64,000 nucleotides of DNA from Alphaproteobacteria bacterium (GTDB taxonomy: Bacteria; Pseudomonadota; Alphaproteobacteria; RF32; CAG-239): NCBI GenBank assembly GCA_017444525.1, contig JAFSWL010000022.1, forward strand, positions 6,646-70,645, given 5' to 3'. Positions 12,388 to 55,946 of the stretch are shown in pieces; the first letter of the stretch is position 1, and each line of letters starts with the position of its first letter. The position numbers were made by a program, and so were the translations under genes. The notes under the pieces were generated by a model, which was not told where the DNA came from, ran no database searches, and was given only the letters and a program-made list of their open reading frames with translations.

Positions 12388-12389
12388 AT

Positions 12390-37642: not shown

Positions 37643-39331
37643 TTATTGCACCCTGACTACACTGCAGAAAACTCCGTTACGTCCTAACTGACTGCAGACG
37701 GAATCACCGCTATCCAAACTCTTTATAGGCCCTACACGCAGATGGAATAGCTCTTTTCCTTGTCCATCTGCCGGTGTATCAACCGAATAGAACGGCTCAT
37801 ATCCACTCAATAATGAGGAATAGCGACCAGACAAATCCTGCCATAAAGCTTCCAAATTATTGACATTGGAATCCGTCCCCAATTCTATCGATAAACTGTC
37901 TGAGGTTTGTCCCTCAAAACCGCTGCCATACTTATATTGCGGGAAATTCTTGCCGATAACGGCACCATCTGCGGTTTTCAATTGCGACATACCGCTGTAA
38001 TCCATATCTCCTGCACATCCATTATTCGGGGCACAAACCGCTCCCATAAGACCATTCATTGAGCTGTTTGAACCGCTGATAGCACCGTTAGGAACATAAA
38101 CACCCCCGCCGGAATTATTTCCGAAACCAGTTCTACCGTCAGTCCCGCTGCTCCCCTTATCTGTACCGGATGCAGCACTTGATGTACTGCTGACTGCTCC
38201 AGCTCCCATACCGGCAGAGCTGCTTCCACCGCTTTGCGAGCCTTGTCCCGGTATTGCCGGAGCAATATCCCACTCATTACTGGTGTCGGCATAGCTTACA
38301 TATTGTGTTCCTTCATCATCAGATCTACGCATCTTTAAGCAAACCATACGCTTACCGCTACGCATAACCATATCGCCTACACCCTCAACGATAATCAATC
38401 TGTTATTTGGTCCTTTGGTTCTAAATCCGACCGGAGTTTCCGAACGTTCGATAATCATCGTCACAATTGGACGCTGTACCATATTTATTGCTTTTTCACC
38501 TAAATCAATATATGTAAATATATCATCATGCCATACACGTTCCGGTGCAATAATCACGTCATCTGGATTAGGTACATAAATTTCAATATCAAAACGAAAC
38601 TTTGACGGATCCATAGGAATACTCTTTAACCAATCTTCTTTTAAGAAGCGACGGGTGAATGTGGCATCAACCGTTTTATCCATTCCAGCCCCGAATCCAG
38701 CAGCGTTTACATGGCCACTGCTACCGCCGGCTATCTCACCGCCGCTCCTGGGACTACCTCCCGATGCGCCGTTTTTACCGACAACATCAATATCTATGAT
38801 GGAGTTTGTTATTCTTTCGGTATTAATACCTTCACTTCTGGCGTAAAATACATATTTATTTCCGGAACGTCCGAGAACGATGACATTAGTATCATTTCCG
38901 ACGGTTGCTCCCGGTTGCGGATATAACATCACGGTATTAGGCGGCATAATCTGCCCCGTAAAAGTACCGGTATCACCGACAAACACATGTTCAACCAACT
39001 CCCATTCCGGAAAATTAATCATTGTAATCATACCTTCACGCAATCTGACCGGCAATACCAGATCAGGTGTCCAATAATATTTAGAATAAGCCGGCTTACT
39101 TTGCCCCTCACCCAAATTCTGTAACGGATCCTGCCATGCTTCCTGAAACATTCCGATAGAACCGAAACCGGCATATCCGAGATTCATTGATTGATAGTTT
39201 CCCTGCGACTGATCCGCCGATTGATCATAACTACTGTTGCTATTATCATCGGTAACCAAACCGGCAGCATAAAGATTGTGCGTAAACAGCATTCCAATCA
39301 TTAATACCAATGTTTTAAAGCTCATTCTCAT
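37643..39331 (-). CDS. virB9: VirB9/CagX-family protein with Gly/Ser-rich linkers and C-terminal SPOR-like domain
   Basis: 562 aa with a signal peptide. VirB9 N-domain-like block (LVLPVRLREGMITMINFP...VIVLGRSGNKYVFYARS) and C-domain-like block (PERVWHDDIFTYIDLG...MVCLKMR). The last 84 aa (nt 37646-37897) resemble SPOR. Confidence 0.8.
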   Translation of the reverse strand: MRMSFKTLVLMIGMLFTHNLYAAGLVTDDNSNSSYDQSADQSQGNYQSMNLGYAGFGSIGMFQEAWQDPLQNLGEGQSKPAYSKYYWTPDLVLPVRLREGMITMINFPEWELVEHVFVGDTGTFTGQIMPPNTVMLYPQPGATVGNDTNVIVLGRSGNKYVFYARSEGINTERITNSIIDIDVVGKNGASGGSPRSGGEIAGGSSGHVNAAGFGAGMDKTVDATFTRRFLKEDWLKSIPMDPSKFRFDIEIYVPNPDDVIIAPERVWHDDIFTYIDLGEKAINMVQRPIVTMIIERSETPVGFRTKGPNNRLIIVEGVGDMVMRSGKRMVCLKMRRSDDEGTQYVSYADTSNEWDIAPAIPGQGSQSGGSSSAGMGAGAVSSTSSAASGTDKGSSGTDGRTGFGNNSGGGVYVPNGAISGSNSSMNGLMGAVCAPNNGCAGDMDYSGMSQLKTADGAVIGKNFPQYKYGSGFEGQTSDSLSIELGTDSNVNNLEALWQDLSGRYSSLLSGYEPFYSVDTPADGQGKELFHLRVGPIKSLDSGDSVCSQLGRNGVFCSVVRVQ

Positions 39332-39346
39332 TTCTTTATCCTAACT

Positions 39347-40099
39347 TTATTCTCTGATTTGTTTGGTTGTATAAGACAGAACCGTAAATCCTACCGGATT
39401 TTTCAGTCTCTCTTTATAAGAAACTCTCTGCGGCACATATTGTACACGCAAACTAGCACGATATTTCAGTTTTTTAGGCGTGTATGATGTCGGCAAATAG
39501 TAATCGGCGCTGTATTCAACCTGCCAATATGATTCGGAAATCTCATTGACGGTAATAATCGAAACATTACTGGTTAAACCGTCTTCTTTCATTCGCTTCA
39601 TCAACTTCGGAGCCGTATTGCTCATAAAATCCTGATAAACAATCGGAGATGACATTTTTTGTAAATCTCCGCCGTTTTGCCAACGTGCCTCCATTTCTTC
39701 AACATCGGAAAGCAACGTTGTTCTTAATAATACATATTGGCGAATAAAAGTCTCGGTTATTGATTTTTTAGCTTCCATATCCCGACTGTACGGAATTATA
39801 TTGTATACTTGCTCATCTTTGCCGGCCAGTGTCAATAAATAAGGTTCTACTCGATATAACGGCAAAATATTGGCAATCGTCAACAACAAAATCAAATTGC
39901 AACACAAGCTTATAGCCGTAACCACCGCAAAAGCGCGAGCCGTCCATAAATATCTTTTTTCGCTTGCATTGACAACCAAATTATCTTCATCTTGCTCTAT
40001 CTCGCGTCTTACGTTCGTACGAGCATTTTGAACCGAACGTTTTTGTCCGGAAGCTATCAAACGTTGCTGTGTGTTATTTACTCCTAACTGAGCTGCCAT
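39347..40099 (-). CDS. virB8: VirB8 family protein (paralog 1)
   Basis: 250 aa, bitopic (TM AFAVVTAISLCCNLILLLTIANIL), with FIRQYVLLRTT and the C-terminal NPVGFTVLSY motif typical of VirB8. Confidence 0.85.
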   Translation of the reverse strand: MAAQLGVNNTQQRLIASGQKRSVQNARTNVRREIEQDEDNLVVNASEKRYLWTARAFAVVTAISLCCNLILLLTIANILPLYRVEPYLLTLAGKDEQVYNIIPYSRDMEAKKSITETFIRQYVLLRTTLLSDVEEMEARWQNGGDLQKMSSPIVYQDFMSNTAPKLMKRMKEDGLTSNVSIITVNEISESYWQVEYSADYYLPTSYTPKKLKYRASLRVQYVPQRVSYKERLKNPVGFTVLSYTTKQIRE

Positions 40100-40114: not shown

Positions 40115-40303
40115 TTAAATCGTTTCCCAAAACCAATCCGGCACATTTTTAATCACGTCAAGTTGCATGCAAGCGCACGGCGACAACTTGAGCTCGTTGA
40201 CATCTTTACCGATACCGACGGCTTCCGGTTCATAATACGAACCAAACAAACTGCATGCCGACAGAACTAAAAATATAGCAAAAATCAAAAGTTTTTTATA
40301 CAT
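40115..40303 (-). CDS. small lipoprotein, VirB7-like by position
   Basis: 62 aa with signal peptide and lipobox LSAC. Located between two virB8 paralogs and upstream of virB9. Assigned by size, lipobox and position only. Confidence 0.5.
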   Translation of the reverse strand: MYKKLLIFAIFLVLSACSLFGSYYEPEAVGIGKDVNELKLSPCACMQLDVIKNVPDWFWETI

Positions 40304-40449: not shown

Positions 40450-41202
40450 TTATTCTCTTATTTCGCTTTGGCTGTATTTTATCACCGTAAACCCTATCGG
40501 ATTAAGTAACCTAGCCTTCAAAAGGCGGCGTTCTTCTAAATATACCGGTGTTACCGAGGCATTATAACGCACTGATTTCAATGTCAATGCTCCGGTATCA
40601 TTACGAGCGCGAGAGAGATTGTAAACGGTGAATTTTACCGACCAAACCGGAGAATTTTCACTCTCTTTTCCAATTTTATCGATATAAACCTCACTCGAAT
40701 ATCCGTTATCAAACATTTTTTCGATAGAGGCTGCATTCATTCCGACAAATTCCTTATATACGTCAGGCGCAGACATATATTGCACAATTCCGCCAGGTCC
40801 CCAGCGTGTCCGCATTTCTTGTTCATCATTAATCACGGTATTGCGCATGATAATATACTGACGCACATACATTTCGGTCAATTGCTTTTCCGACGACATT
40901 TTTTTATCAATAGGCTCATAGCGAACAGTAGTCTCCGAATCCTTTTGATTTATTATCAGCAGTGGTTCTACAACAATTTCGCGAGCCAAACGAAAAATGA
41001 CCAAAGTTGAACACAAGAAAAACGTCAGAGAAACAATAGTGCAAAAGATAACCAATCGTGAAAGCCAACGGAAATATATTTCTTTATTTGAAGTCTTTTC
41101 CTGTCTGACATCTTTAATAAAGTGCGGCTGATAACCGACATCTACTTTCCGCTTTGTATCAGTTATCAATATTTTTTTTGTTCCGTTTCCGAGCTGAACC
41201 AC
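40450..41202 (-). CDS. virB8: VirB8 family protein (paralog 2)
   Basis: Shares VEP, [FY]VRQY, EM..RW..GG, MS.P.VY and NP[VI]GFTV..Y....IRE with paralog 1. GTG start at 41202 (AGGAAAGGG RBS) avoids overlap with the upstream gene and gives 250 aa, identical in length to paralog 1. The ORF-track start is 41292. Confidence 0.8.
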   Translation of the reverse strand: MVQLGNGTKKILITDTKRKVDVGYQPHFIKDVRQEKTSNKEIYFRWLSRLVIFCTIVSLTFFLCSTLVIFRLAREIVVEPLLIINQKDSETTVRYEPIDKKMSSEKQLTEMYVRQYIIMRNTVINDEQEMRTRWGPGGIVQYMSAPDVYKEFVGMNAASIEKMFDNGYSSEVYIDKIGKESENSPVWSVKFTVYNLSRARNDTGALTLKSVRYNASVTPVYLEERRLLKARLLNPIGFTVIKYSQSEIRE

Positions 41203-41227: not shown

Positions 41228-44200
41228 TTAATGAGGATATACCGCGCAATACGGACGTGCAAACTGTTGTAAGCGACGTTCACGTTCTTCATCTTGTCTT
41301 TCAGCGGTCTTTTGAGCTATATCCCAATCGGCTTTTGCCGTTTGCATTTCTTCGAGCATATCGGTTTGTGGATCCCAAGAACCGTCAATTGTAACCAGAT
41401 CGCCAGGATAATCCGGAATCAACTCATTTCCCTCGCTATCCATCTGGTATAACAAAGCACGTCTGGTGATATCGGCCACACGCTCTTTGATGGCATTGAC
41501 TTCATCGCCGTCACTAAAAGTACCGTCAGGATTCTCAATGGTCGTAGTCATTTTGACTTCACTTAATTTATTTAATGCTGCAGTAATGGCTTTTTCTTTT
41601 TCCTCAGTCAATTTATCACGAAGCCGTTTATAGTCTTGTTCATTAGCCAAATCAAATTCCTCACCGAACACAAAATCAGTCTCTATCAGAGTTTCCGCAA
41701 GTTCCAATTGAGTGCGCTTAAGATCTTTTTCAGAATTAAGAAGATTATCGGCGGTAACCCTCATAGTTTCTATTTGGTTTAAATAATCTCCCAACTGATT
41801 ATTTTGTAATAACACGCGCGAGGCTAAATTTTGCCGTGAAGTACCTTCTTCATTTCCTTTTTGGCCGTAATCTTCATCATATGCAGACAGGGCATGCACC
41901 AATTCATTATTATAGGTTAGTCGTAAAATTTCAATTTTCTGCGATTTACAGGCCTTTTCTTCACATGACAGATTGCCGCCGCAGCTTTTTTTAGCCGCGT
42001 TGCAAACACTTTTATTAACTTCATACTTTGTCTCCGTATAATATGTCAGAATATTACCGATTTCACTGGCTCTACGCGGACTAACCCAGTCTGAAGCATG
42101 TTTTCCATGCAAAGCAGAAGTTTCTTTATCAAACACTCTCTCGCTGACATGGCGCAAAGCCTGACACTCAGGCACCCCCATAATAACATCTGTTATAGGT
42201 GTCGCAGCATTATACGGCACAGTAGAATATTCCATCCAATCAGGAGGAACCAATGACGGAATATACGTCTGTTTCGGCTCATTCGGATTAGCCGAGCCTA
42301 AATTCTCCGGCTTTTGCGGCTGCTGCAAATCAGCAATTTTACCGGTTGTGTACTGTAAATCACTGTTAACATCAATAAATTGCTGGGCAGGTATTCCCGA
42401 AGATTTACCGTTTTCGTCATAAATAGTCCGCCCGCTGAGGTTTCCTGCCGAATTATATTCAGGCGAACGGCACGGATAAAGACCAGAACGACGAATCGAT
42501 TGCCTTGCACTTAGTGTGCGCATCTGTTCTTCTGAAGTACCGTCTTGCCTGCCTATAAGTTTTTTCAAGTCAAATGAACGTTGAACATAGGTATGCGGTT
42601 TCAATATCCATTTCCATACTTCAGGCACCGTAGATTGTTTAATGCTGTCTTCACCTCTTATATAGTCTTCCGGTGATTTTATCTGCGTATTAGGAGCACC
42701 TCTTAAAAGATCTTCTAAAAACAGTCTTTGACTCAAAAACATTTTGGTATTTTCATTAATACTTTCTTCATCTCCTTTATAATATTTCGAGATTGAAGAA
42801 AAATCGTAATGATCAAAGTAAAATACCTCTCGCATAGGAGCCGAAGTAAACCAATCCGGCGCGCGCGGTGCGGCAAAGTCGTGCGGTAATCCAACAATGC
42901 CGACGAAAAATGCGTCATCTTCGTTTACGCAGAAATCATTGGCACAAATACCGGCAAGAAAGTTCAATGACACGAAAGAATTGCCTTCACTATCGGTAGT
43001 TTCCCCACAAGATGCAATATCCGACGGCGACACACTGCTGATTTTATTTATTAAATCAGCATGAATTGCTTTAAGTTTACCATAATTGCCGGGCATGTAT
43101 ATCTTGCCGGTATCTTGTAACTCAGTCTTAATCTTTTCTTGTGCTTTTTCAATTTGTTCCACAATATATTGACGAGCGCAGCTCATTACCGTAGAAGCAA
43201 TTTCAGCAGGTACAATTTTTGTAATGGCTTCTTCCGGAGTAATAAAACTTCGGCGAGCTGCACGAATCGAAGCAATCAATGCCGCTGTTTCTCGCATTTC
43301 TTGAGCTTCGGCATCACTCATTTGTTTAACATATTCACGCCGAGCCTGATCCAATCTGGCATCAATTTCCTCTATCAATTCTTCCCTTTCTTTTATATAT
43401 TCTTCTATATCCGATGTCTCCAACAACACTTCATCCTTGGTAGAATTTGCTTTTTCCTGCTTAGCTTCTGCTTCCTCTTGCAAATTCTTGTAATTCTGCG
43501 TTTGCGGCATTTCATCAATATCGACATCATCTCTGTTGGCTTTATCGTATAAATCTGCATTATAATCAAGCCCTTTTTGGGAAACATCTATTTCTAAAAT
43601 AGCTTCATTAATATCGCGATTAGCTCGATTATATTTGGCATTTAATTTACTTAATTTCTGGCCTGCTTCGTCTTTTTCAGCAACACGTATTTCCCTTTCC
43701 GTCTCATCTTTCTTGATTTTTGCCTCGTATTGCGCCTTTATTTGTTTAAATATTTTCTCATAATTTTCAATCATCTGATTAATTTGGCCTTCTTCGTTCT
43801 TGAAATAGTCTTGCACTACGGAAGCACTATCTTGTCCGTTTCCGGTACTACTGCCACTGCCAGACAGTCCACTGACCACACCAGCAGCAAAATTCGATAA
43901 CAACATTTGAGTCGGAGCCGTCATAATGTAGTCTTTCATGTTTTCATATTTGCCGTTTATATATTGGTCATAAAACGCCATTTGATCATTCCATAGCGGG
44001 AATTTACGCTTTCTTTTACCAAAATGAACTGTGCCACTGTCATCCAAACCAAAATCCAAATCTCTGGCCACATCTTTCATAACTTCGGCACCTACAGCCC
44101 AACGCATAATACTTTCTTCCTGTGTATCGCTCAACTGTCCTTTTTCTGATTTTTCATCTTTAACTGTGGGCTGATTGCTTTTATCTTCCGGATCTCCCTC

Positions 44201-46351
44201 ATAATCTTCTGGGTTGGCTTCCATATCACTTTTTTTATTGCGGTAATTGTCATCAACACTTTCGATACTGTCGCGCTCAGTTACATAAACGCGTGAAGAT
44301 TGCTCTTCTTCGTCATCTTCATCCTGTTGTGTATCGAAAGTTTGCTCTTCATCATCCGTCCTGCCGGTTTCAGATTTATAAAATTCCCTATATTTGGCTG
44401 CTTTAGTTTTATCAGTATTATAGTCCAAATCCTCCGCATCTGAAGATATAACAACATGGGATGAGTAATCGGCACCCTCGCTGGCATCGGCTTGGATAGT
44501 GATAACAGGCTCTTCATCATACTCATATAAAGCATTGCCGTCAATAGCAGCACGGTATAAATCAACCAAATACTGCATTATACCGCCCTTAGACGAAGTT
44601 TCTACAGCATCAGGACGCTCCGGAAGCGGTTTATCTTTCGATTTACCTGTGCTGTTTTCCTCATCTTCTTCGGTTATTTCCTCCTCGTTTAATAAATCAA
44701 TAAATTCATCAATGTTGATGACATAGCATTTTTCAGAAGAATTATCCGGACATGCCACATCCATTAAACCGATAGATTCCGATGTATCCGTAAAGTCTTT
44801 GTTTTTGGTATAATGGCAAATAACTCTGCCGGACGGAGTGGTTTTAGCCGCATCTTCAAATTCGGTCATACAATCATTGGGGCCGTACCACACTTTATCA
44901 GTTTCATAGTAATAAGGTTTAAGCATATTCATTGCGCATTCACCCGAACGAACAACCATTTGTCTGCTGATGTTATGCAATCTCTCAATATAATGATGCG
45001 TTTTATATAAATCCAAATATCCGGGTAAACGCATCAAGGCATTGTGCATCATCTCGGCGCGTTGCAAATCTTCTTCGGCAGCGGCAATACTTACCAAATC
45101 ATCAAAATTATCTCCTCTGGTGCCAAGCACGTGTTTATAATCTTTAGCACCGTTGCTCAACTCAAAATCACCGCTTAACAAATCATTTTCATCGTCGAAA
45201 ATTGCCTGATATTTTTGTATTTCTTCCTCGGCATCACGTTCTTCTGCCGACATATCTGCAAACATTACGTCAGCCGTAATTTTTACCGAAACAACCTCAT
45301 TAATCCGATTCAACGGCTGATTTAAGGAAGAAGTTTTGTCCCCACCGTTTTCTATTTTTTCTTTGTCCTCGTTATATTCTTTAATTTTAGCAATATTGGA
45401 AATACTGTTTACAGAACGATATTGCGCCAACATAGCCACCAAAAATTCATTATAGCGCATAATGGTATCATATAATGTTTCCGCCTTAATCGCACTATTC
45501 CAAAAGCATACCATATCTTCATTTTTCTTGTTGTTTCCAAAACCAATATCCGTATTTTGAATACTTTCACCACGGTCGCCGCCTTCGTCCGTACTGCCAT
45601 TACATGAAGTTACCTTAATATAATCGCAGAATTGATTTGCAACCAAGCATCTTTCATAGAGTTTTAGTTGTGTAACAATTCCCAAATCTTCCATAGGAAC
45701 ACCTTTTAATTTAGATTCTACCGCGGCTATATTCTCGGTATCGTCTCCTTCCGGTATAACTAACGGTTCTCCAAACAATTCAATTTCTTTGCCTGCAAGT
45801 TCCTTTTGCATTTCCTTGGCTATTATATACATTTCCAGAGTTGTATCAAGTTTAAGCTCTTCCCCCTTCTGAGCATATTCGTACTTGGTCTTGTTATTCT
45901 CGGAAGGATATTGAAAAAACAACTTAATAAAAGCTTTTTTAACCATATCTTCTTTATTGACATCAACTACTCTTTTAACACCTTTAGAATCGGTAACAGT
46001 CGTTTTCTTACAATCTTCGATGGTACGGGAATAAGAAATGATCTTTTGTTTTTTCTTTTCTGGTTGCTTTAACATGTTCAAAGAACTTTTACCCATCATA
46101 ACACCATATTCTTTAGCCAATTGTTTCATTCGGGTTATATCGGTAAAAGAATCAAGCATTGTCTTATTTACAATAACTTCCTTAATTGAGCTGGTCAAAA
46201 TCGCCGCTTCCGACGGACCGCCGGTCAGATTGGCCTGAGGCACAGGTCCAGGAACGGCCGGTGCCGTATCAGGTATAAAAGCTGATGCGGTACTGCTGAT
46301 GAAAGAACTGATAAATAAAATTAATAAACTTTTTTGCAACATGTTCATCAT
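41228..46351 (-). CDS. 1707-aa secreted T4SS-locus protein of unknown function
   Basis: Signal peptide (LLILFISSFISSTASA), no further TM helices, strongly acidic low-complexity region (aa ~555-730), long coiled-coil region (aa ~840-1000) and many Cys. Sits between the virB4 and virB8 blocks. Confidence 0.7.
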   Translation of the reverse strand: MMNMLQKSLLILFISSFISSTASAFIPDTAPAVPGPVPQANLTGGPSEAAILTSSIKEVIVNKTMLDSFTDITRMKQLAKEYGVMMGKSSLNMLKQPEKKKQKIISYSRTIEDCKKTTVTDSKGVKRVVDVNKEDMVKKAFIKLFFQYPSENNKTKYEYAQKGEELKLDTTLEMYIIAKEMQKELAGKEIELFGEPLVIPEGDDTENIAAVESKLKGVPMEDLGIVTQLKLYERCLVANQFCDYIKVTSCNGSTDEGGDRGESIQNTDIGFGNNKKNEDMVCFWNSAIKAETLYDTIMRYNEFLVAMLAQYRSVNSISNIAKIKEYNEDKEKIENGGDKTSSLNQPLNRINEVVSVKITADVMFADMSAEERDAEEEIQKYQAIFDDENDLLSGDFELSNGAKDYKHVLGTRGDNFDDLVSIAAAEEDLQRAEMMHNALMRLPGYLDLYKTHHYIERLHNISRQMVVRSGECAMNMLKPYYYETDKVWYGPNDCMTEFEDAAKTTPSGRVICHYTKNKDFTDTSESIGLMDVACPDNSSEKCYVINIDEFIDLLNEEEITEEDEENSTGKSKDKPLPERPDAVETSSKGGIMQYLVDLYRAAIDGNALYEYDEEPVITIQADASEGADYSSHVVISSDAEDLDYNTDKTKAAKYREFYKSETGRTDDEEQTFDTQQDEDDEEEQSSRVYVTERDSIESVDDNYRNKKSDMEANPEDYEGDPEDKSNQPTVKDEKSEKGQLSDTQEESIMRWAVGAEVMKDVARDLDFGLDDSGTVHFGKRKRKFPLWNDQMAFYDQYINGKYENMKDYIMTAPTQMLLSNFAAGVVSGLSGSGSSTGNGQDSASVVQDYFKNEEGQINQMIENYEKIFKQIKAQYEAKIKKDETEREIRVAEKDEAGQKLSKLNAKYNRANRDINEAILEIDVSQKGLDYNADLYDKANRDDVDIDEMPQTQNYKNLQEEAEAKQEKANSTKDEVLLETSDIEEYIKEREELIEEIDARLDQARREYVKQMSDAEAQEMRETAALIASIRAARRSFITPEEAITKIVPAEIASTVMSCARQYIVEQIEKAQEKIKTELQDTGKIYMPGNYGKLKAIHADLINKISSVSPSDIASCGETTDSEGNSFVSLNFLAGICANDFCVNEDDAFFVGIVGLPHDFAAPRAPDWFTSAPMREVFYFDHYDFSSISKYYKGDEESINENTKMFLSQRLFLEDLLRGAPNTQIKSPEDYIRGEDSIKQSTVPEVWKWILKPHTYVQRSFDLKKLIGRQDGTSEEQMRTLSARQSIRRSGLYPCRSPEYNSAGNLSGRTIYDENGKSSGIPAQQFIDVNSDLQYTTGKIADLQQPQKPENLGSANPNEPKQTYIPSLVPPDWMEYSTVPYNAATPITDVIMGVPECQALRHVSERVFDKETSALHGKHASDWVSPRRASEIGNILTYYTETKYEVNKSVCNAAKKSCGGNLSCEEKACKSQKIEILRLTYNNELVHALSAYDEDYGQKGNEEGTSRQNLASRVLLQNNQLGDYLNQIETMRVTADNLLNSEKDLKRTQLELAETLIETDFVFGEEFDLANEQDYKRLRDKLTEEKEKAITAALNKLSEVKMTTTIENPDGTFSDGDEVNAIKERVADITRRALLYQMDSEGNELIPDYPGDLVTIDGSWDPQTDMLEEMQTAKADWDIAQKTAERQDEERERRLQQFARPYCAVYPH

Positions 46352-46364
46352 TCCCTCCTAGTCC

Positions 46365-47648
46365 TTAAAAGAAGCCTTTTATTTTGTTTTTAAGACCATC
46401 CTTAAATTTATCTTTGGTCTGATTTTTAAGTTTTGCCAGTAAATCTTCTTTAGTCAGCAAATAATCGTCGAGGTTAAACTTGGTAAAATCTTTGTCATAA
46501 TCGCGAAGTCTGTATTTGTTTTTCCACTTTATCATTTCGCTTGTGGTTTGCAATTGCATCATTGCCAGCATAATTTCCAAATATCCGGCGGCGGCAATGG
46601 AATTTTGCAATTCAACACACTGACGCAAGCCTAATGCTCCGAATACACCATCTGCTTCCTTTGTAGAAGCGTCTGCGCAGGCAACGCTGTGTTCATTGGT
46701 GGTTGTTATACTATCCCTAGTAACTACAACTGTTTCCAAAGCATTTTTTATTGCGTCATAATATTCACGATTGCGTTCATCCACAACACGTTGCACATTT
46801 TGTGGGTTATCAGTCTCATCTTCGCGCAAAAAGAGTTTGCTGATGGCTGTTTCATATATTTCGTCTTCTTCTTTATTTGGATCAATACCGAACAACTCCA
46901 TTAATTCTGTTTGCATCAGCGCTTGAACTTTATCTTCTGATAATTCAGCTGATGCTTCCTCTATTTTCTTTTTCAATTTATTCATTTTACGTTTGGTTTT
47001 TCTCACTTTACTTGTTGTCATAACATCTTTTTCATCGTTTTGTTTGATTTGCAAGGCCATATCGGCAATAGCTAAATCCAATGCATCCAATTGCGCCACT
47101 CTTTCCGGTGTAGATTCCTGTTCAATTAAGGAATCAAGAGCACTCCGCTGTGATTGCAAAAGTACCATTTGCTTCTGCATGGCCATTTTCTTATTCAATT
47201 TTTCTTTTTCTTCGGCCTCGATTGCATCATTCATTTTCTTTTCCCACTCATTATATTCTTGAGTTAGTTCTCCCAGTTGACCTGTCAATGCCTCCATCAA
47301 ACCCTTTGTAGAGTAATCACTGGCAGCATATTGACCTTTCGCTACATCTACAGCAACGTCCGCCGATTTTTTCAAGATTTTTACATACAACTTTTCACTT
47401 TCATTATCTTTCGGTTGCAAAGTTTTTCCATTCAGCTTTTCCATAATCGTTGCCGTCATACCTTCGTCATTTTGCATATCTTTCAGGATTTTGGTACCGA
47501 TATCGGTTATGATTCCGGAAATGGAATCCAAATAAGCCAGTGCATACACCTGCGGTGTATATAAACTCAAGGCACAGCAAATATATATAACAAACAGAAA
47601 TATTGATATTCCGCTATTTTTGATTATTGTTCTCGTCGGCTTTCTCAT
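46365..47648 (-). CDS. secreted or anchored coiled-coil protein (427 aa from the chosen start)
   Basis: Start placed at ATG 47648 (AAGGAG 5 nt upstream), overlapping the upstream gene by 35 nt. One N-terminal hydrophobic segment, and the rest is helical and charged. The ORF-track start is 47732. Confidence 0.6.
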   Translation of the reverse strand: MRKPTRTIIKNSGISIFLFVIYICCALSLYTPQVYALAYLDSISGIITDIGTKILKDMQNDEGMTATIMEKLNGKTLQPKDNESEKLYVKILKKSADVAVDVAKGQYAASDYSTKGLMEALTGQLGELTQEYNEWEKKMNDAIEAEEKEKLNKKMAMQKQMVLLQSQRSALDSLIEQESTPERVAQLDALDLAIADMALQIKQNDEKDVMTTSKVRKTKRKMNKLKKKIEEASAELSEDKVQALMQTELMELFGIDPNKEEDEIYETAISKLFLREDETDNPQNVQRVVDERNREYYDAIKNALETVVVTRDSITTTNEHSVACADASTKEADGVFGALGLRQCVELQNSIAAAGYLEIMLAMMQLQTTSEMIKWKNKYRLRDYDKDFTKFNLDDYLLTKEDLLAKLKNQTKDKFKDGLKNKIKGFF

Positions 47649-48759
47649 CTGCGTTCTCCTTGTTGTTTTTCTCTTTTTGCTGTTTATAATACTTTTGACC
47701 TTCGGCGAATGCCTGTTCCGAGAGGGCATCATAATTCCTATTATTGGCGTTATCGTATGCGTTTTGTCCGGCTTCTACTTTGCTTGATACTTTGCTGATT
47801 GTTTTGGCAACTTCCGGATTATATTCCGGACTTCCTGAATAAATATCCGCCATGGAATTAAAGGCTGAAGAGAAATCTTTGCGTTTAATGGCATCGATGC
47901 CTTTATTAACCAAATTTGTTACATCGCCTAAAGTTATACCGTTTGAACCGTATTGCGGTGTTCTGACACCATGTTCTTTCAATTTTTTAACAGTTTCTTC
48001 TGTTTTTTCACCGAGAACATCGGCTGTATCGTCAAGACGAACCCTATTCGCGCGCTCTTTCAAAATATTGGAAATATGAGAGGATTCAAACAATAACACA
48101 TTCAACCAACGATTATTGGCACGCCGCATTACCACACCGTAGTTCCATTCTAATTCCATAATATCTTTACTTGAGTTTTTAGCTTCTTTAGGTCCCCTTT
48201 CGGCATCTGACTTAGAAAGCTTTTTTGATTCATCTTGTAGCTGTTTGCGCGTAACCAAAGCATTCGCGTAATCAATTGCCAAATTTTCAATCGTCAGATT
48301 ATTCATAGACACATCCTTAGCTACTGATACTTGAACATCGTTATCAATGTGTTTTTTCTTAAAATAGGACATAAGCACCTGACGCTTGGTCATCGGCGAA
48401 GTATATTCACCGCAATCGGTCGCAGCATCAATCCCCGGCCATTGCAAGTTGCTTATCTTTGTATTAAAAAATTCAGAATAATCTCCGGTGTCAATAAATT
48501 TACGAGCTTTTTGAGCGCCGTTTAGAACTTTTATTGCCGTACGTGCTAAACCTTTGGCCTTTTTTTGATTTTTGGTATCGGTGGTTTTTTCCTGCAAATT
48601 GACTTGTCCCTTAACATTGTCATTAACATATAAAGATACGTCTTCTTCGCCGATTTCCACACCTCCGATAAAATCCTTAATAAAATCAAGCTCTGCAGCC
48701 GCGTATTTCGGTAACAGAAGTCCGATGACAATTATAAATGTCGCTATATATTTTTTCAT
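47614..48759 (-). CDS. secreted protein (381 aa)
   Basis: Signal peptide MKKYIATFIIVIGLLLPKYAAA and GGAAGGAGG RBS. No family recognised. Confidence 0.65.
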   Translation of the reverse strand: MKKYIATFIIVIGLLLPKYAAAELDFIKDFIGGVEIGEEDVSLYVNDNVKGQVNLQEKTTDTKNQKKAKGLARTAIKVLNGAQKARKFIDTGDYSEFFNTKISNLQWPGIDAATDCGEYTSPMTKRQVLMSYFKKKHIDNDVQVSVAKDVSMNNLTIENLAIDYANALVTRKQLQDESKKLSKSDAERGPKEAKNSSKDIMELEWNYGVVMRRANNRWLNVLLFESSHISNILKERANRVRLDDTADVLGEKTEETVKKLKEHGVRTPQYGSNGITLGDVTNLVNKGIDAIKRKDFSSAFNSMADIYSGSPEYNPEVAKTISKVSSKVEAGQNAYDNANNRNYDALSEQAFAEGQKYYKQQKEKNNKENADEKADENNNQK

Positions 48760-48789
48760 CCTATCCTCCTTCCGTTGCCGTCCTATATA

Positions 48790-50346
48790 TTAGTTCCAAT
48801 CATTGCAACTAACAGATAAACCGTAGTCTCGTTTTACTTGAGCGCAAGCTTGTCCAGAAAATACGGTTGATGCTGCTTGATTCAATATATTAAGGTAATA
48901 CTGTGCATCCTCTTTGATACCAGCCGCAGTGTCAGGATCGTTTATTAATGATGAATAGCGATTATAAGCTTCAACATAAGTTTCTTGCGACATACCTTTA
49001 GCCGTAGCCAAATAGTTATCGTCGCGGCTGCTTTGCTGTTCTTTCTTCTTGACTTGTTCAACTTCAGTCAAGCGATCAAGAGCTTTTTGTGCATTGGAGA
49101 TTTCTTTGTCTGTTGCATCGGGTGCATTCATCGCTGCCGTCAAATCTTGGCGCAATTGTTCAACCTCATCCTGATGCGCTGCGAAATCCTCGGCACTCAT
49201 TTTTTCATACGCATCTATTTTGCTTGAGCCATTGACTATAACCTCTTTCAAAACCGTACCGCCATTCTTCTCAACCAAATCGCAGGCACCCTCGTAACAC
49301 TCAAAAGTTTCGCCTGTCTTGGCACGATATACTCCATCAGGGCAAGCGCCGGTTTTACCGTTGATTTCACACTGATTGCTGCCAAGGAATGTGCCGGCAA
49401 CCGTACCCTCATCTCCGTAATCGCCTTCTTCAGAAGTGCCTAATTGTCCTTCTTCATTTGATTCTTCTGCTTCGTCTTTCTCAGCTTTGTCTTTTGCAGA
49501 AGCATCCGGGCTTTCCGGTGTAATACTGGTTTCGTTGCTGATAACACCGGAATCCGTCTCGGTTGAAGCAGAACCTTTTACCGTGGTTTTACTGGTAGCA
49601 TATTCAACATCGCTTAATATTGCCGAAGGATCTATGTCCCTGATAGCATCAATTGCCGTATATTTGAGATTCTCTGCATATAATTCCCGCAAATTATTTA
49701 TTATATCCGTAGCAAACGCATGTGCATTGGTAAGTGCCCCCTCAGTATCACGCTGAGTGTTGGATTTTGCCGTAGCGGTGGAATAAGCATTTTGCGTTTC
49801 GTTGTAATTAATCACACTTTTTAATTTATCGGTTGCTACCGTAAGCGTATCATTAAGTGCCTGATAACGCATTTCATCATAATCTTTCAACCCTTGTTCT
49901 CTAATGGCGGAGTTGTCGTTATTCATAGCTTTAACGTATTTTTTGATACATTCCTCAATTTTACTTAAATCTTTGGCAATGTCTTCGGCATTTACTTTGC
50001 AATACATCATCATTTTTTGCGGAAATAGCGGACGATCATGATATAAATTGCTGTATTTCACATCTTCGGCTTCTTTTTTGGCCTCTTCATCAGCTTTTGC
50101 CGTTGCATCTGCTTCTGCCGGATTTGTCTTTGAAGCATCGGCGGAAACACTGGCGGAACCGCCTGAAGATTTGCCGTTTGAGCCGTTTGCAGCATAACCA
50201 AATGTTGTTTCCTTGGATGCTTGCCCGTTATTATAAGTTATCGTATCATTTTTAACTTCATCGCCGGAAAAGGCCGCCGATGCATTATATAACATTATAA
50301 AAGCACTCAGTATAAATATTTTCAGTAAACTATTTTCTTTTATCAT
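48790..50346 (-). CDS. secreted protein (518 aa) with helical N-half, acidic linker and 4-Cys module
   Basis: Signal peptide; Cys326/335/350/355 cluster (nt 49282-49371). No TM helices and no family recognised. Confidence 0.65.
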   Translation of the reverse strand: MIKENSLLKIFILSAFIMLYNASAAFSGDEVKNDTITYNNGQASKETTFGYAANGSNGKSSGGSASVSADASKTNPAEADATAKADEEAKKEAEDVKYSNLYHDRPLFPQKMMMYCKVNAEDIAKDLSKIEECIKKYVKAMNNDNSAIREQGLKDYDEMRYQALNDTLTVATDKLKSVINYNETQNAYSTATAKSNTQRDTEGALTNAHAFATDIINNLRELYAENLKYTAIDAIRDIDPSAILSDVEYATSKTTVKGSASTETDSGVISNETSITPESPDASAKDKAEKDEAEESNEEGQLGTSEEGDYGDEGTVAGTFLGSNQCEINGKTGACPDGVYRAKTGETFECYEGACDLVEKNGGTVLKEVIVNGSSKIDAYEKMSAEDFAAHQDEVEQLRQDLTAAMNAPDATDKEISNAQKALDRLTEVEQVKKKEQQSSRDDNYLATAKGMSQETYVEAYNRYSSLINDPDTAAGIKEDAQYYLNILNQAASTVFSGQACAQVKRDYGLSVSCNDWN

Positions 50347-50374
50347 TGTACATTTCCTTTTCCACTATGTAATT

Positions 50375-51163
50375 TTATTGATACGTAGGTGTCTGAGTTC
50401 CGGCAGGCTGCTTTTGCTGCTCCAATTTTTGTTCCAATTTTTGCTGTCCTGATGCCGCAATATCTTCTATCGTATCTGCAGCCATCTTATCGATTATGTT
50501 ACCGACATCATCTCCGGAAACCGCAGCTTTTGCGGCATTTTGCACGCCTGAACGATTTTTCTTGAGCCAATTAAACACTTGTGCTTTGTATTTTTGATGT
50601 TTTACGCTGTTGTTTTGTTGTGAAGATGCATTATTCTCCGTACCTGAACCGGAAGCCGCTCCCAAAGATGTACCGGAAGAACCGTCGCCGGCGGCATTGG
50701 CTTTGTCCTCTTCTTCCCATGCTTTATCTTCTTGCTGTTCTTTCAGCTCTTCATCAAGTTTTTTTTGCAAATATTCTCTACCCTTGCGTTTTTGTTCGGC
50801 AACAAATTCTTGTGATTGGGTTTCGACAGTTTTTTCACCGGCAGCATATACCGTTCCGAACGGATCATCTCCGAAACGTCCCCAATTCATATTATTTATA
50901 AATTTATTAAACATTTTATTATACGTCGATCGTACTTCCGGACTGTTGCCGCGTTCGGCATTTTCTTCTACCAGCTTGCGATTGTTATGTGCTTTTGTAC
51001 TTTGATTTTTTTCAATGGTACTCAAAGTCCATGAGCGCATATAGTCGGCCATATATGTTTTAAAAAATATCGGAATGCCCTGTGCTTTGGCATTGCATGC
51101 ACAGAGAGTTATCGCCACAACAAGGACAACCGTTTGAATTATTTTTTGCGCTTTTCCAGTCAT
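50375..51163 (-). CDS. secreted protein or lipoprotein (262 aa), possible paralog of the adjacent 234-aa protein
   Basis: Signal peptide with possible lipobox (ITLCAC). Has a central K/E coil and a C-terminal FNWLKKN...GNIIDKMAAD block. Confidence 0.6.
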   Translation of the reverse strand: MTGKAQKIIQTVVLVVAITLCACNAKAQGIPIFFKTYMADYMRSWTLSTIEKNQSTKAHNNRKLVEENAERGNSPEVRSTYNKMFNKFINNMNWGRFGDDPFGTVYAAGEKTVETQSQEFVAEQKRKGREYLQKKLDEELKEQQEDKAWEEEDKANAAGDGSSGTSLGAASGSGTENNASSQQNNSVKHQKYKAQVFNWLKKNRSGVQNAAKAAVSGDDVGNIIDKMAADTIEDIAASGQQKLEQKLEQQKQPAGTQTPTYQ

Positions 51164-51186
51164 CAGTCCCGTCTCCCGTTATTCTA

Positions 51187-51891
51187 TTATCTTGTCGGGG
51201 TTTCCGTGTTACCCGACTTTGTCGCCTCGTTATTCTCGTATTTTTTAACTTGCGCATCTATAGCCGCACTGCCGACGTCATTAACCAAACGATCAACTGC
51301 ACCTTCATAATTATTGTTTGCAACCGAATTGACAATTCCCTCAACTGTCGACTGCGCTTGCGAATTACTTTTGTACCAATTATATGATTTGCTTAGCAAT
51401 GACGATCTTTTCTTATCCTTTTCCTGACGCTCGCTTTTTATATTTTTTACCGCTTCATCTCTTGCTTCTTTTTCTTCGCGCAGCCGCTTATCTGCTGCTT
51501 TTTGCCGCTCATATTTTTCCATTCTCTTGGCGGTCAGCATAGCTTGTTCACTAGCTACAACCGCGCCGTATTTTTTGAGCATTTTTTCTAAACTTTCGCC
51601 GAATCTGTCGCCGGTTATAGCACCTTCCACCGTATTGATTACATTCATGTATAAATCAAGCGAATTAAGCGGGCCATAACCACGATCTTTCTGTGCTTTA
51701 TCAAGTTTTTCTTTTTTATCTTCTTCTATTTTCTCGTCGTGCTTTTCCGTACTATCCTGTTCGCTATTTTCGGAATTTTTCAACGAATCATCGGTAGGCA
51801 TTTCAGCATAAACACAAGTGATACCTACACCGAACAGCATCATAACAGCTAAGAGAGCAAAATATCTTATCCTCTTTAATTTATCCATCAT
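51187..51891 (-). CDS. secreted protein (234 aa)
   Basis: Signal peptide, central K/E coil and a C-terminal YNWYKSN...GAVDRLVND block resembling the 262-aa neighbour. Confidence 0.6.
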   Translation of the reverse strand: MMDKLKRIRYFALLAVMMLFGVGITCVYAEMPTDDSLKNSENSEQDSTEKHDEKIEEDKKEKLDKAQKDRGYGPLNSLDLYMNVINTVEGAITGDRFGESLEKMLKKYGAVVASEQAMLTAKRMEKYERQKAADKRLREEKEARDEAVKNIKSERQEKDKKRSSLLSKSYNWYKSNSQAQSTVEGIVNSVANNNYEGAVDRLVNDVGSAAIDAQVKKYENNEATKSGNTETPTR

Positions 51892-51972: not shown

Positions 51973-54402
51973 TTATGAAATATCCAGATATTTGGTTAAG
52001 AAACCGTCTTCGCCGTATTCTTTGATCAACTGTTGGACAAGTAGCACGTTTTTGCGACCGGAATTATAAATACGCAGATATTTACCCAAACCACTCAAGT
52101 TAACATCCAAAATAACCGATTCACCGGTTACAGGCCGCGACAACAAAATAGCATAAGGGAAATCACGATAGCTTTTACCGAAAATAAAGTCCATTTCACT
52201 TTGCGTCAGGTTCCAGTTGGCATAATCTTCCGGCTGCGCCTGCGGGTTGCGGAAAAAGATTACGGTTTGGCATTGACCGCGAATCACTTCGCCCACACCC
52301 AACTTATCCACAATATTCGGCTGTTGGAAGGCACAAAGATAAGCCTGACGCTTTTTGCGGCCTTCCTGCAAACCGATAATAAAATAGTCTCTAAACATCG
52401 GGTGCTTTAACATCGGTGCGGTTTCATCAATCATAATCAATGACGGAACGCCGGTTTCTCCGGTTTCAGATTGAATACGGTGCATAATATAACTGATTAC
52501 CGCCGGTGCCAGATTTTCATCTTCAAAAATGTGCGTAAAATCAAATGCCATAAAACGACGACTTTTCAAGTCCAAGCTATCATTCTGTCCGTTGAATATT
52601 GCTCCGTACTGGTCCGGATTTACCCAGCGATACAGCTCGCGGCGCATATTTCCGGTCGGAGAAAAACAACTTTTATATAAATTTGATAAAAGACGCTCTT
52701 CCGGCCGCAGATAATCAAATGCCGTTGTTACGGCTCGCGCCACTTCACGATCGGCCAAAGCATCGTCAACCATGGTAATTGATTTCAACCAACGCCGTAA
52801 AAATGCACGATTTTCAGAAGTGTTGGCACAATCAAAAGGATTAAGTGACACGTTTTTCTCATCGCCATCAAAGCCGACATAAGCCCCCTTAATTGCGCGG
52901 GTAAAAATCTGCGCGCCGAGATGGCGATCGAAGAAAAATACACGCAAATCGGCATGCCGCATGGCTTGTCCGGCCAAAAATGTAAGTAATGTCGTTTTAC
53001 CTTGTCCGGTAGGTCCGATAATGCAGCAGTGGGCCACCGCAGATTCTTCGCTGCTGACATGAAATTGAAAACGATAAGCCGATCCCGACATTGTGCGAAA
53101 AACGGTTATGGCTCCGTTACCCCAGTCGCTTTTATTAAAGCCTTCCGCCGGTTTATCAAGAGTTATACCCATAGCAATAGCCCGCGACAAGAACATATAC
53201 GTACGCGGATATGTGTCGTAAGTCGGGAATTGTGTAAAGAACACTGCCTGTGTTACCCAACCCTCACGCACCGGAGTTACGCCGAATGCACGGCAGATAC
53301 GTTGAATTTCAGACTCGGCAAAATCCAATTCTTCTTTGGAACGTCCTTTGGCGATAATAGTCATCGCGTATTCTGACAGCGATTGATAGTCATTATCGCT
53401 GTCATCAATTGAAGCCAGCGCCGTAGCATATTGATCTACAACTCCGGCCGAAAAACTGGTGGTCATAGCCATACGCTGTTGTTGCATCAGCAAACCTCTG
53501 GCCTGTGCTCTGAACATCGGACGAATGTTGTGAACTATAACAAGCTCACTATCAATAGCGTTTAAGGAATAAATCATACTCTCATCCCATGCTTCACCGC
53601 AAGAACGAATACCAAAAGCAATTTCATACAAATCATTATCGCCGGAAAAAAAGTGAATTATCCCCTCTTCTTGAGTAAAGTGGATATGATCTCCGGTCAA
53701 TAGTTCACATAATCGAGCCCCCTCGGCACTGTTGATTTTCGGAGTTGGTTTGGAAACCGGACTGCATAACCTTGAAAACAAATAAAACGGGCTGTCAATC
53801 GGATTACTGCCTTCAGTCTCATACATCGGACTGACACCGTATTCCCCCAAAGTAGACATCAAGCTTTGCGAAGCATAGTTCAAATCTTTTAATGCATCTT
53901 TACGGTCGATAACCGACAATATAATATAGTGTTTATTGGTATAAATTCTATCCATTTGGTTAAACCAAACCTGCGAAATCGCATCCAATAACTTATTATT
54001 AAAGTCTCGTTTTTCACTTTCCAGCGCATCATGATCGCGAGTGGTGATTACTCGAGCAATTACCTGCATGTTCGATAAATCATCAAGCCATGATTTACGT
54101 GCTTCCATCATGGAATAGACTTTTTCGTCGGTGGCAGAAGATAAATCAACACCTTCCAGACGGAAAACACGAGCATACGAATTGTTGCGGCACTGAATGG
54201 TAACACCGTCAGACATAAGTTTTTGAAACGGCAGAAAGTCAGAAACTCGTGATTCTCGCGGCTGCGGCAAAACCCAATTACCGAATTTTGTTGCCAGCAA
54301 AACGGCAAACGAGGCTGCTGCTAAAATACCAATAAGAGCAACCACAATTTCGAAATTGCTCAATCCGCGCACAAACAGGTTGAAAAAATCGTATTCATTC
54401 AT
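51973..54402 (-). CDS. virB4: type IV secretion ATPase VirB4
   Basis: 809 aa with Walker A GPTGQGKTT, Walker B-like SLIMIDE, and the N-terminal membrane-associated region typical of VirB4/TrbE. Has a 4-nt overlap with virB3. Confidence 0.9.
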   Translation of the reverse strand: MNEYDFFNLFVRGLSNFEIVVALIGILAAASFAVLLATKFGNWVLPQPRESRVSDFLPFQKLMSDGVTIQCRNNSYARVFRLEGVDLSSATDEKVYSMMEARKSWLDDLSNMQVIARVITTRDHDALESEKRDFNNKLLDAISQVWFNQMDRIYTNKHYIILSVIDRKDALKDLNYASQSLMSTLGEYGVSPMYETEGSNPIDSPFYLFSRLCSPVSKPTPKINSAEGARLCELLTGDHIHFTQEEGIIHFFSGDNDLYEIAFGIRSCGEAWDESMIYSLNAIDSELVIVHNIRPMFRAQARGLLMQQQRMAMTTSFSAGVVDQYATALASIDDSDNDYQSLSEYAMTIIAKGRSKEELDFAESEIQRICRAFGVTPVREGWVTQAVFFTQFPTYDTYPRTYMFLSRAIAMGITLDKPAEGFNKSDWGNGAITVFRTMSGSAYRFQFHVSSEESAVAHCCIIGPTGQGKTTLLTFLAGQAMRHADLRVFFFDRHLGAQIFTRAIKGAYVGFDGDEKNVSLNPFDCANTSENRAFLRRWLKSITMVDDALADREVARAVTTAFDYLRPEERLLSNLYKSCFSPTGNMRRELYRWVNPDQYGAIFNGQNDSLDLKSRRFMAFDFTHIFEDENLAPAVISYIMHRIQSETGETGVPSLIMIDETAPMLKHPMFRDYFIIGLQEGRKKRQAYLCAFQQPNIVDKLGVGEVIRGQCQTVIFFRNPQAQPEDYANWNLTQSEMDFIFGKSYRDFPYAILLSRPVTGESVILDVNLSGLGKYLRIYNSGRKNVLLVQQLIKEYGEDGFLTKYLDIS

Positions 54403-55923: not shown

Positions 55924-55946
55924 AACTCCTCCTTTCTTCAACCTGA

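Follow-up and report, generated by a model that had tools for sequence, protein, structure and literature searches.

In Rickettsiales, the rvh type IV secretion system (T4SS) has VirD4 and no VirB5, and its gene array encodes extended VirB6 paralogs, which are polytopic. The Cag system of Helicobacter pylori encodes consecutive exported, pilus-associated VirB5-like or accessory proteins (CagL, CagI and CagH), has a huge stretch of repeats in its VirB10 homolog (CagY) and includes both a coupling protein and CagW, a homolog of VirB6; the Ptl system of Bordetella pertussis keeps VirB6 as PtlD. Ptl has neither VirD4 nor VirB1; Sec-exported proteins encoded with the machine leave from the periplasm, and two-step secretion is the accepted model for this system (PMC12857230). 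The Trw system of Bartonella has no coupling protein and carries multiple variable copies of VirB2 and of VirB5-type proteins between virB4 and virB8, and variable pili for host-specific adhesion have been proposed (PMC12857230). In this study, we analyzed a T4SS of an uncultured gut or rumen alphaproteobacterium, encoded in a 64,000-nucleotide stretch of contig JAFSWL010000022.1 (positions 6,646 to 70,645; hereafter the window), in which the slot between virB4 and virB8 is occupied by six genes for exported, hydrophilic proteins.

On balance, we favor the reading that these six genes are an expanded exported set of the VirB5/X type, X being the second slot protein of related plasmids, and that VirB6 is supplied in trans. 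The same reading, taken as a whole and held with moderate confidence, has the T4SS descend from a distinct alphaproteobacterial clade with plasmid members and pass down vertically, the slot set being a lineage-specific, fast-diverging expansion. The analysis shows the anatomy, conservation, selection and clade relationships of the locus and the trans-encoded VirB6 of relatives; from these, we infer where the slot proteins are located and what they do, and that VirB6 is present elsewhere in this genome.

Content of the virB4–virB8 slot

The T4SS genes form a single operon on the minus strand, running from 56390 down to 28256. The preliminary description, made from the sequence alone, had placed six genes for hydrophilic signal-peptide proteins of 234, 262, 518, 381, 427 and 1707 aa between virB4 and virB8, and coordinates, hydropathy and composition agree with it. 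The six genes, designated S1 to S6, are given below with their matches to hidden Markov models (HMMs) of four protein families, A to D, built from related loci, and with nonsynonymous (dN) and synonymous (dS) divergence from a strain-level variant (L091).

S1, 51187..51891, minus strand: exported helical protein of 234 aa with an apparently degenerate VirB5-type N-terminus (A/EMPTDD, the slash marking the cleavage site); dN/dS 0.12
S2, 50375..51163, minus strand: exported helical protein of 262 aa with a putative VirB5-type N-terminus (A/QGIPIFF, compare QGIPVFD in TrwJ); dN/dS 0.33
S3, 48790..50346, minus strand: exported protein of 518 aa related to the C-terminal part of family A (~370–800 aa; HMM E 2e-15, residues 108–244); dN/dS 0.11
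S4, 47614..48759, minus strand: exported helical protein of 381 aa, family B (~220–280 aa; HMM E 6.5e-14); dS 0.63
S5, 46365..47648, minus strand: exported or anchored helical protein of 427 aa, family C (~400–490 aa; HMM E 8e-35); dS 0.66
S6, 41228..46351, minus strand: giant exported protein of 1707 aa, family D (~1250–1650 aa; HMM E 1e-133)

A Kyte-Doolittle scan demonstrated exactly one hydrophobic stretch in each of S1–S6, always N-terminal, and AXA-like cleavage sites could be read in all six (VYA/E, AKA/Q, AFS/G, AAA/E, VYA/L and ASA/F, respectively). Lysine, glutamate, glutamine and aspartate together make up 0.29–0.33 of their residues, compared with 0.16–0.22 in the core VirB proteins. 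The longest open reading frame (ORF) of S5 extends to 47732 and would encode 455 aa; gene callers choose 427. The genes are separated by 13–81 nt or overlap by 35 nt, and a single operon is therefore plausible; a promoter and terminator scan stayed at chance level, the terminator signal included. None of S1–S6 gave a credible Pfam match or a PDB match, and no toxin or enzyme domain was detected in them; searches of Pfam, NCBIfam and PDB sequences with the six proteins and the family alignments returned only coiled-coil noise. Around them, Pfam recognized VirB4, both VirB8 proteins, VirB9, VirB10 (TrbI) and VirB11.

The earlier statement that the ORFs between 28 and 56.4 kb never exceed two transmembrane (TM) helices needs a small adjustment. 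No ORF in this interval has four or more hydrophobic segments, but the VirB2-like proteins score three, that is, a signal peptide plus two.

Compared with the described systems, the locus resembles Bartonella Trw in its three VirB2 paralogs, its variable slot proteins and the lack of a coupling protein at the locus. However, Trw amplifies trwJ-trwI-trwH (VirB5-VirB6-VirB7) units and so keeps VirB6 in the slot, the slot proteins of the window far exceed those of Trw in size and show only a marginal likeness to VirB5, and the systems are not closely related (identity to classical VirB4 is about 25%). Like rvh, the T4SS of the window is alphaproteobacterial, chromosomal and vertically inherited, contains duplicated parts (VirB8 among others) and has an enlarged array right after virB4, whereas the array of the window lacks membrane spans and its locus lacks VirD4. 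The several exported slot-type proteins and the huge repeat-bearing VirB10 may be likened to those of Cag, with no sequence relationship detected. Ptl lacks VirB5, and its toxin genes lie upstream of the operon rather than in the virB4–virB8 slot. By analogy, the closest functional counterparts would be Bartonella Trw and, for two-step export, Ptl.

Location of VirB6, VirB1 and the coupling protein

The sequence examined for this genome amounts to ~84 kb, consisting of the window with 10 kb to its right (L095) and 10 kb to its left (L096). Within it, TrbL/VirB6 (PF04610) was not found by hydropathy, Pfam, tblastn or HMM searches with VirB6 references, and an SLT transglycosylase (VirB1) was not found by Pfam. 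For the type IV coupling protein (T4CP), there was no Pfam match in the window, and tblastn with T4CPs of the clade was negative in the window, in the 10-kb flanks and in 86 related loci. The absence of VirB6, VirB1 and VirD4 from the locus, noted in the preliminary description, was thus upheld by Pfam, tblastn and HMM searches; no slot protein is polytopic or homologous to VirB6, and neither virB6 nor virD4 lies just outside the window.

The nearest annotated systems are encoded on alphaproteobacterial plasmids. In PLSDB, VirB4 identity was 38% for Microvirga sp. VF16 pMVF16-3, 34% for Sphingosinicella sp. BN140058 p1, 34% for the Erythrobacter aureus YH-07 plasmid and 30% for the Ca. Paracaedimonas plasmids. 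The Microvirga, Sphingosinicella and Erythrobacter plasmids share an order in which a MobA/MobL relaxase gene precedes virB2-B3-B4-slot-B7-B8-B9-B10-B11-T4CP, and the VirB3, the lipoprotein (B7), VirB8b, VirB9, the VirB10 C-terminus and VirB11 of the window are orthologous to the plasmid proteins. The Erythrobacter and Sphingosinicella slots hold VirB5 and the hydrophilic signal-peptide protein X (~430–490 aa), and neither cluster encodes a polytopic protein; the Microvirga slot holds VirB5 and X plus a 228-aa protein with 3–4 TM segments. The Paracaedimonas slot is canonical, with a 251-aa VirB5-like protein and a 352-aa six-TM protein matching TrbL. The three uncharacterized systems of Microvirga, Sphingosinicella and Erythrobacter are thus alike to that of the window in having the closest VirB4, the gene order, a VirB6-free exported slot and a PCAC lipoprotein. 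They differ in having one VirB2, one VirB8, a VirB10 of normal size, two slot proteins, a relaxase and a T4CP; the window has three VirB2, two VirB8 and six slot proteins, is chromosomal and carries a giant VirB10 region with beta-flower repeats.

The Sphingosinicella p1 and Erythrobacter megaplasmids also carry many genes of replication and repair, namely dnaE, dnaN, ligA, ribonucleotide reductase, recA and Rad52-like genes. MOB-suite rates them as non-mobilizable or mobilizable, perhaps owing to the split-off VirB6 module described below.

Sphingosinicella p1 (347 kb) was searched in whole and encodes, at 88560–89885 and ~17 kb from the T4SS cluster, a 441-aa TrbL-like protein with 6 TM segments that scores 23.8 bits against Pfam TrbL and matches Paracaedimonas VirB6. 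Its gene is the last of a three-gene module and lies beside an SLT transglycosylase gene. The same module occurs on the Erythrobacter plasmid, at a distance of 19 kb from the T4SS cluster; the ortholog encoded there has 436 aa and 46% identity, scores 28.6 bits against Pfam TrbL, above the cut-off, and is annotated in the record as a T4SS protein. A clade-wide machine without VirB6, which we had first favored, was rejected once the whole Sphingosinicella plasmid revealed this trans-encoded TrbL.

A comparable gene is present in one lineage of metagenome-assembled genomes (MAGs), represented by L079, where a 715-aa TrbL-like protein was first caught as an edge ORF by a VirB6-reference HMM and then obtained as a full gene from two metagenome contigs (L106 and L107). 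In L106, it occupies 3182–5329, 3.5 kb upstream of virB2, between a divergent pilus cluster (TcpQ) and virB2; genes for a XerD-type recombinase, a ROK kinase and a nucleosidase lie between it and virB2. The protein has a signal peptide, a Cys-rich N-domain, seven hydrophobic segments and a Gly/Ala/Lys-rich tail, and a CFFC motif ahead of its first helix corresponds to CWGC in the plasmid proteins. The slot of this lineage retains six signal-peptide proteins. The slot proteins thus coexist with VirB6, and they are therefore no substitute for it.

The preliminary description had allowed that the missing functions are either encoded elsewhere or replaced in a machine built differently. For VirB6, the trans-encoded TrbL of the relatives favors the first option, and substitution by slot proteins is unsupported. 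This evidence from relatives makes it most likely that the VirB6 of the window is encoded elsewhere in the genome and that the gap is a matter of gene order, not of a VirB6-less machine, relocation being likelier than loss in this lineage. In the clade, VirB6, and in Sphingosinicella also VirB1, lie outside the core operon, elsewhere on the replicon.

In the plasmid relatives, the T4CP gene directly follows virB11; in the window, an autotransporter gene stands there, and unlike the plasmid versions the locus has no relaxase. Because coupling protein and relaxase are both absent from the locus, classical delivery of cytoplasmic substrates or DNA would require a T4CP gene elsewhere and is otherwise not expected.

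Identity and evolution of the slot proteins

To place the slot proteins, we compared the window with related gut and rumen genomes. Its VirB4 is found unchanged on 12 metagenome contigs and is 74–94% identical to the VirB4 of 80 species-representative MAGs from the rumen and from human and animal gut, sampled from ~227 related genomes. These MAGs are labeled Alphaproteobacteria, CAG:495 or Ca. Scatocola, the last being placed in Rhodospirillales by NCBI; we take the group to be GTDB order RF32. Full-text literature searches returned no publication that describes a T4SS for this group.

In 49 of 49 complete slots of the related loci, virB4 and virB8 are separated by genes for 4–6 signal-peptide proteins, never polytopic, and none of the 222 slot proteins of these relatives has more than two hydrophobic segments. 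Since the arrangement recurs in every complete slot, the VirB6-free slot goes beyond chance. The more distant relatives carry the four families in the fixed order A-B-C-D, and orthologs of S1 and S2 are present in the three closest species only.

First-slot proteins of the related MAGs start with FPLPTxD, IPTVD or IPSID directly after the signal peptide, comparable to the mature N-termini of TrwJ (GIPVFD) and of the Erythrobacter (IPVID) and Sphingosinicella (IPTID) proteins. They thus carry the VirB5-type signature, which comprises a Sec signal peptide, a hydrophobic-P-x-x-D motif, a long helix and the position of first gene after virB4. Because the first slot proteins bear this VirB5-type mature N-terminus, VirB5 is probably not missing from the slot. 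The S1 orthologs of the three closest species begin with AEAPTVD or AEIPTSD, and in the subgroup of the window the first-slot VirB5-type gene appears to have been duplicated and to have degenerated, to EMPTDD in S1 and GIPIFF in S2. By position and motif, S1 and S2 would be short VirB5-type paralogs; S3–S5 are helical relatives of uncertain depth (families A, B and C), and S6 belongs to a new family (D) at the position of X.

Profile comparisons gave results of uneven strength. The family A HMM matches Erythrobacter VirB5 collinearly at both ends (E 7e-8 and 1.6e-3), and in hhalign the plasmid protein X reached 90–96% probability against VirB5 references (TrwJ, A. tumefaciens VirB5 and others). 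Family B reached 62% against VirB5 references with the signal peptide and <25% without it. Paralogy of families A, B and C, at first indicated by hhalign probabilities of 92–97%, was discarded as mostly a signal-peptide effect, since after trimming only the A–B (80%) and plasmid VirB5–X (96%) matches remain. The proposal that D is an enlarged X was likewise dropped; it had position and a loosely similar Pro/Cys-rich N-terminus in its favor, and hhalign gave <1%. Against TrwI, A. tumefaciens VirB6 and Paracaedimonas VirB6, families A–D and X stayed at <1% in hhalign, and no HMM or tblastn match was obtained.

The slot genes are real, constrained and very fast-evolving. Relative to L091, dN/dS is 0.09–0.33 for the six slot genes and 0.02 for virB4, and the dN of slot genes is 10–25 times that of virB4. 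In the nearest other species, the slot proteins are 33–57% identical, compared with 94% for VirB4. Synonymous divergence from L091 is 0.63–0.66 in S4 and S5 (46365–48759), compared with 0.10–0.25 in most neighboring genes, which suggests that divergent alleles were imported there by recombination.

Family D has seventy invariant positions, including Cys; conserved Cys and aromatic residues are spread over the full length of the protein, the C-terminus ends in an invariant PYCAVY, and neither Pfam nor PDB sequences gave a match. An AlphaFold2 model of one ortholog (P0017 residues 19–1218, from a 19-sequence alignment) consists mostly of long helices with small beta elements at a predicted local distance difference test score (pLDDT) of 62, the conserved N-terminal 290 residues of the family D ortholog being unmodeled, and Foldseek against the PDB returned nothing at E<=1e-3. 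Its long-helix matches (dynein, SMC, chemoreceptors and XaxB/MakA-type toxins) had TM-scores <0.4 and E >1e-3, and no inference was drawn from them. Family C comprises only 84 clusters among 1.84 billion representatives, none of them with a Pfam VirB5 or VirB6 domain, and a repeat homolog search with the S5 alignment added one sequence. The model of S5 is all-helical but of low confidence (pLDDT 51, predicted TM-score 0.31) and has no significant Foldseek match.

Proposed role and rival explanations

In the mechanism that we propose, the slot proteins would cross the inner membrane via Sec and might interact with the stalk in the periplasm or with the site of pilus assembly, as modeled for VirB5 on the VirB6 pentamer (PMC12857230). 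They could then be carried along a filament composed of the three VirB2 paralogs to its tip or surface, where they would serve variable contact or adhesion, or be released. The lack of a T4CP and relaxase at the locus, the pilin and VirB8 duplications, the giant repeat-rich VirB10 region, the adjacent autotransporter and the hypervariable, apparently recombining slot genes speak for a device used in contact, adhesion or two-step export rather than for a conjugation machine. A surface or pilus-decorating protein set, as raised in the preliminary description, would agree with how fast the slot proteins evolve, with the presence of three VirB2 paralogs and with the lack of a coupling protein.

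Several findings weigh against an expanded VirB5/X-type set with VirB6 in trans. With signal peptides trimmed, families A, B and C reached only 10–52% against VirB5 in hhalign, and the VirB5-sized first-slot proteins align to VirB5 at the N-terminal motif only (50%). The VirB5 profile PF07996 matched none of S1–S6 nor any of 30 family A and 29 family C members, its positive control being the VirB5 of the Erythrobacter slot at 30.3 bits, above the cut-off. The structure models of slot proteins are of low or moderate confidence, with no Foldseek match at E<=1e-3. The TrbL match of the L079 protein, at 17.5–17.9 bits (E 0.003), is below the Pfam cut-off. For the lineage of the window, no VirB6 was found in the window or its 10-kb flanks, and 79 of the 80 related loci likewise yielded none; the interval between pilus cluster and virB2 that houses VirB6 in the L079 lineage measures only 410 bp, and loss of VirB6 is possible. 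The last observations also speak for a VirB6-less machine, in which a VirB6 gene once present between pilus cluster and virB2 was deleted and exported VirB5-like paralogs, possibly S5 with its long N-terminal anchor or S6, form the stalk or platform. In its favor, strong purifying selection on the core genes shows that the machine is in use, and according to a 2025 review VirB6 is mostly a periplasmic pentamer on only two membrane helices (PMC12857230), so a soluble stand-in is conceivable. However, VirB6 is described as conserved across all T4SSs (PMC12857230), the slot families show <1% similarity to it, and the ~84 kb covered belong to a genome of unknown size. The reading of a T4SS built without VirB6 is further weakened by the trans-encoded TrbL/VirB6 genes that both sphingomonad plasmids and one MAG lineage keep alongside the same slot type. 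We therefore regard it as quite improbable, and slightly more so in the version in which VirB6 was lost and S5, S6 and other VirB5-like paralogs build the stalk or platform of a contact or two-step export machine without coupling protein.

The slot proteins might instead be cargo, that is, Sec-exported substrates pushed out from the periplasm in two steps as in Ptl, for which this route is accepted (PMC12857230), S6 being a large secreted effector or adhesin. Sec signal peptides, genes inside the operon and the lack of a T4CP at the locus would suit such a role, as would the fast divergence and the raised dS of S4 and S5, expected of exposed or secreted proteins. Yet equivalent VirB5 and X genes hold the same slot in plasmids that have a relaxase and a T4CP, which points to a structural role, and the four families keep their order group-wide with no toxin or enzyme domain detected. 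The cargo reading also overlaps with the preferred one, in that VirB5-type tip proteins are likewise exported and exposed, and taken by itself we judge it unlikely. Decay of the slot into non-functional VirB5 and VirB6 remnants could be read from the lack of family matches, the low-complexity acidic or coiled stretches and the very fast divergence. It is effectively refuted by dN/dS values of 0.09–0.33 in all six genes, intact frames, an order kept across dozens of species, the 70 invariant positions of S6 and identical copies in 12 independent assemblies.

The locus represents a chromosomal T4SS of conserved gene order in 80 species-level genomes of uncultured gut and rumen alphaproteobacteria. 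Slot proteins that change fast beside a nearly frozen ATPase show the pattern expected of the machine part in contact with a host, a partner cell, a phage or the immune system. In this clade, which includes plasmid-borne and chromosomal members, VirB6 and VirB1 are uncoupled from the core operon, and automated T4SS prediction that looks for an operon-encoded VirB6 could wrongly rate such loci as incomplete. Families D (1,250–1,700 aa) and C (400 aa), without known relatives, are candidate new adhesins, tip proteins or effectors.

The operon runs in the order of three virB2-like genes, a gene for a 147-aa protein, virB3, virB4, the six slot genes, virB8a, a gene for a 62-aa lipoprotein and virB8b, followed by virB9 (with a SPOR domain), a 1413-aa repeat protein, a 1385-aa VirB10, virB11 and then the autotransporter. 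These features and the neighboring pilus cluster are as follows.

virB2-like paralog a, 56004..56390, minus strand: signal peptide plus 2 hydrophobic helices; Pfam TrbC; Microvirga plasmid VirB2 by BLASTP, E 3e-17
virB2-like paralog b, 55567..55941, minus strand: Pfam TrbC; plasmid VirB2 by BLASTP, E 3e-6
virB2-like paralog c, 55180..55563, minus strand: 127 aa, three hydrophobic segments; plasmid VirB2 by BLASTP, E 2e-5
Signal-peptide protein of 147 aa between virB2c and virB3, 54686..55129, minus strand: one N-terminal hydrophobic segment; no Pfam match
virB3, 54399..54689, minus strand: 96 aa, 2 hydrophobic helices; annotated VirB3 of the Microvirga plasmid by BLASTP, E 2e-8
virB4 ATPase, 51973..54402, minus strand: Pfam CagE_TrbE_VirB (PF03135) and NCBIfam VirB4_CagE (TIGR00929), E 2.5e-115; dN/dS 0.02
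virB8 paralog a, 40450..41202, minus strand: diverged duplicate; Pfam VirB8 E 1.6e-11; plasmid VirB8 match 2e-16, weaker than that of paralog b
Lipoprotein of 62 aa between the two virB8 genes, 40115..40303, minus strand: candidate at the VirB7 position; lipobox VLSAC
virB8 paralog b, 39347..40099, minus strand: ortholog of plasmid VirB8; Pfam VirB8 E 7e-22; BLASTP E 6e-33
virB9 with C-terminal SPOR domain, 37643..39331, minus strand: Pfam CagX and SPOR; plasmid VirB9 by BLASTP, E 1.5e-62
Protein of 1413 aa, 33401..37642, minus strand: N-terminal TM segment (residues 19–37), then beta-flower/RHS/DUF3659 repeats (Pfam)
VirB10 of 1385 aa, 29241..33398, minus strand: beta-flower repeats and C-terminal TrbI; Pfam TrbI E 5.5e-32; NCBIfam ComB10 E 2.4e-33
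virB11 ATPase, 28256..29404, minus strand: NCBIfam VirB11 E 4e-43
Autotransporter of 1355 aa, 24069..28136, minus strand: Pfam Autotransporter beta-domain E 1.2e-39; occupies the T4CP position of the plasmids
Type IVb-pilus-like cluster, 56800..63825 and on into L095 11777–15222, plus strand: 545-aa protein, TcpQ, secretin, PilO, 580-aa protein, T2SSE, T2SSF and 183-aa protein (Pfam)

The third virB2-like gene is lengthened to encode 342–1170 aa in more distant relatives (L079 6039–9545; L044 8344–9585; L060 6453–9518), and in L079 the Pfam TrbC pilin segment covers residues 378–449 of a 1168-aa protein. Orthologs of the 147-aa protein are confined to closer relatives. virB8 paralog a is called as 250 aa in L091. 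By BLASTP, the 62-aa lipoprotein matches small lipoproteins of the Erythrobacter (7e-12) and Microvirga (4e-9) plasmids whose genes immediately precede virB8; its motif ELKLSPCAC shares LK.SPCAC with the plasmid lipoproteins, and the Sphingosinicella counterpart is unannotated. The gene is called in L091, with 0 nonsynonymous and 4 synonymous changes, and its product is likely the VirB7 equivalent.

The peptidoglycan-binding SPOR domain of VirB9 follows a Gly/Ser-rich linker, which is worth noting at a locus without a VirB1 transglycosylase. By eye, the N-terminus of the 1413-aa protein resembles the TM end of plasmid VirB10, and the 1385-aa VirB10 gene begins two nucleotides after the 1413-aa gene, in a different frame and with a signal-peptide-like start. 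The VirB10 function thus appears to be split or enlarged across 29241–37642, where the plasmid relatives have a single VirB10 of 530–590 aa. The autotransporter gene is co-oriented with virB11, and the passenger domain has no Pfam match.

The type IVb-pilus-like cluster is divergent from the T4SS and starts 410 bp upstream of it. A cluster of this type also adjoins the T4SS in the L079 lineage, where L106 has a TcpQ gene upstream of the VirB6-like gene, and the pairing of the two systems recalls a conjugation system with a thin pilus. A shared origin with the type II secretion and type IV pilus genes of the plasmids was rejected, the match being limited to the ATPase domain.

Elsewhere in the window lie rnpA, yidC and yihA (20.4–23.4 kb) and genes for hflK/C and a DegP-type protease (0.6–3.9 kb), and the T4SS region is chromosomal. 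Three consecutive large proteins of 753, 840 and 519 aa are encoded on the minus strand at 7404–13949, upstream of two ABC exporters; they have nearly no family matches, only sub-threshold HepT-like and MORN ones. A 306-aa protein with a weak ankyrin-repeat match (Ank_4), a repeat often present in effectors that target eukaryotic cells, is encoded near the secretion loci at L095 21108–21743, ~7 kb to the right of the window.

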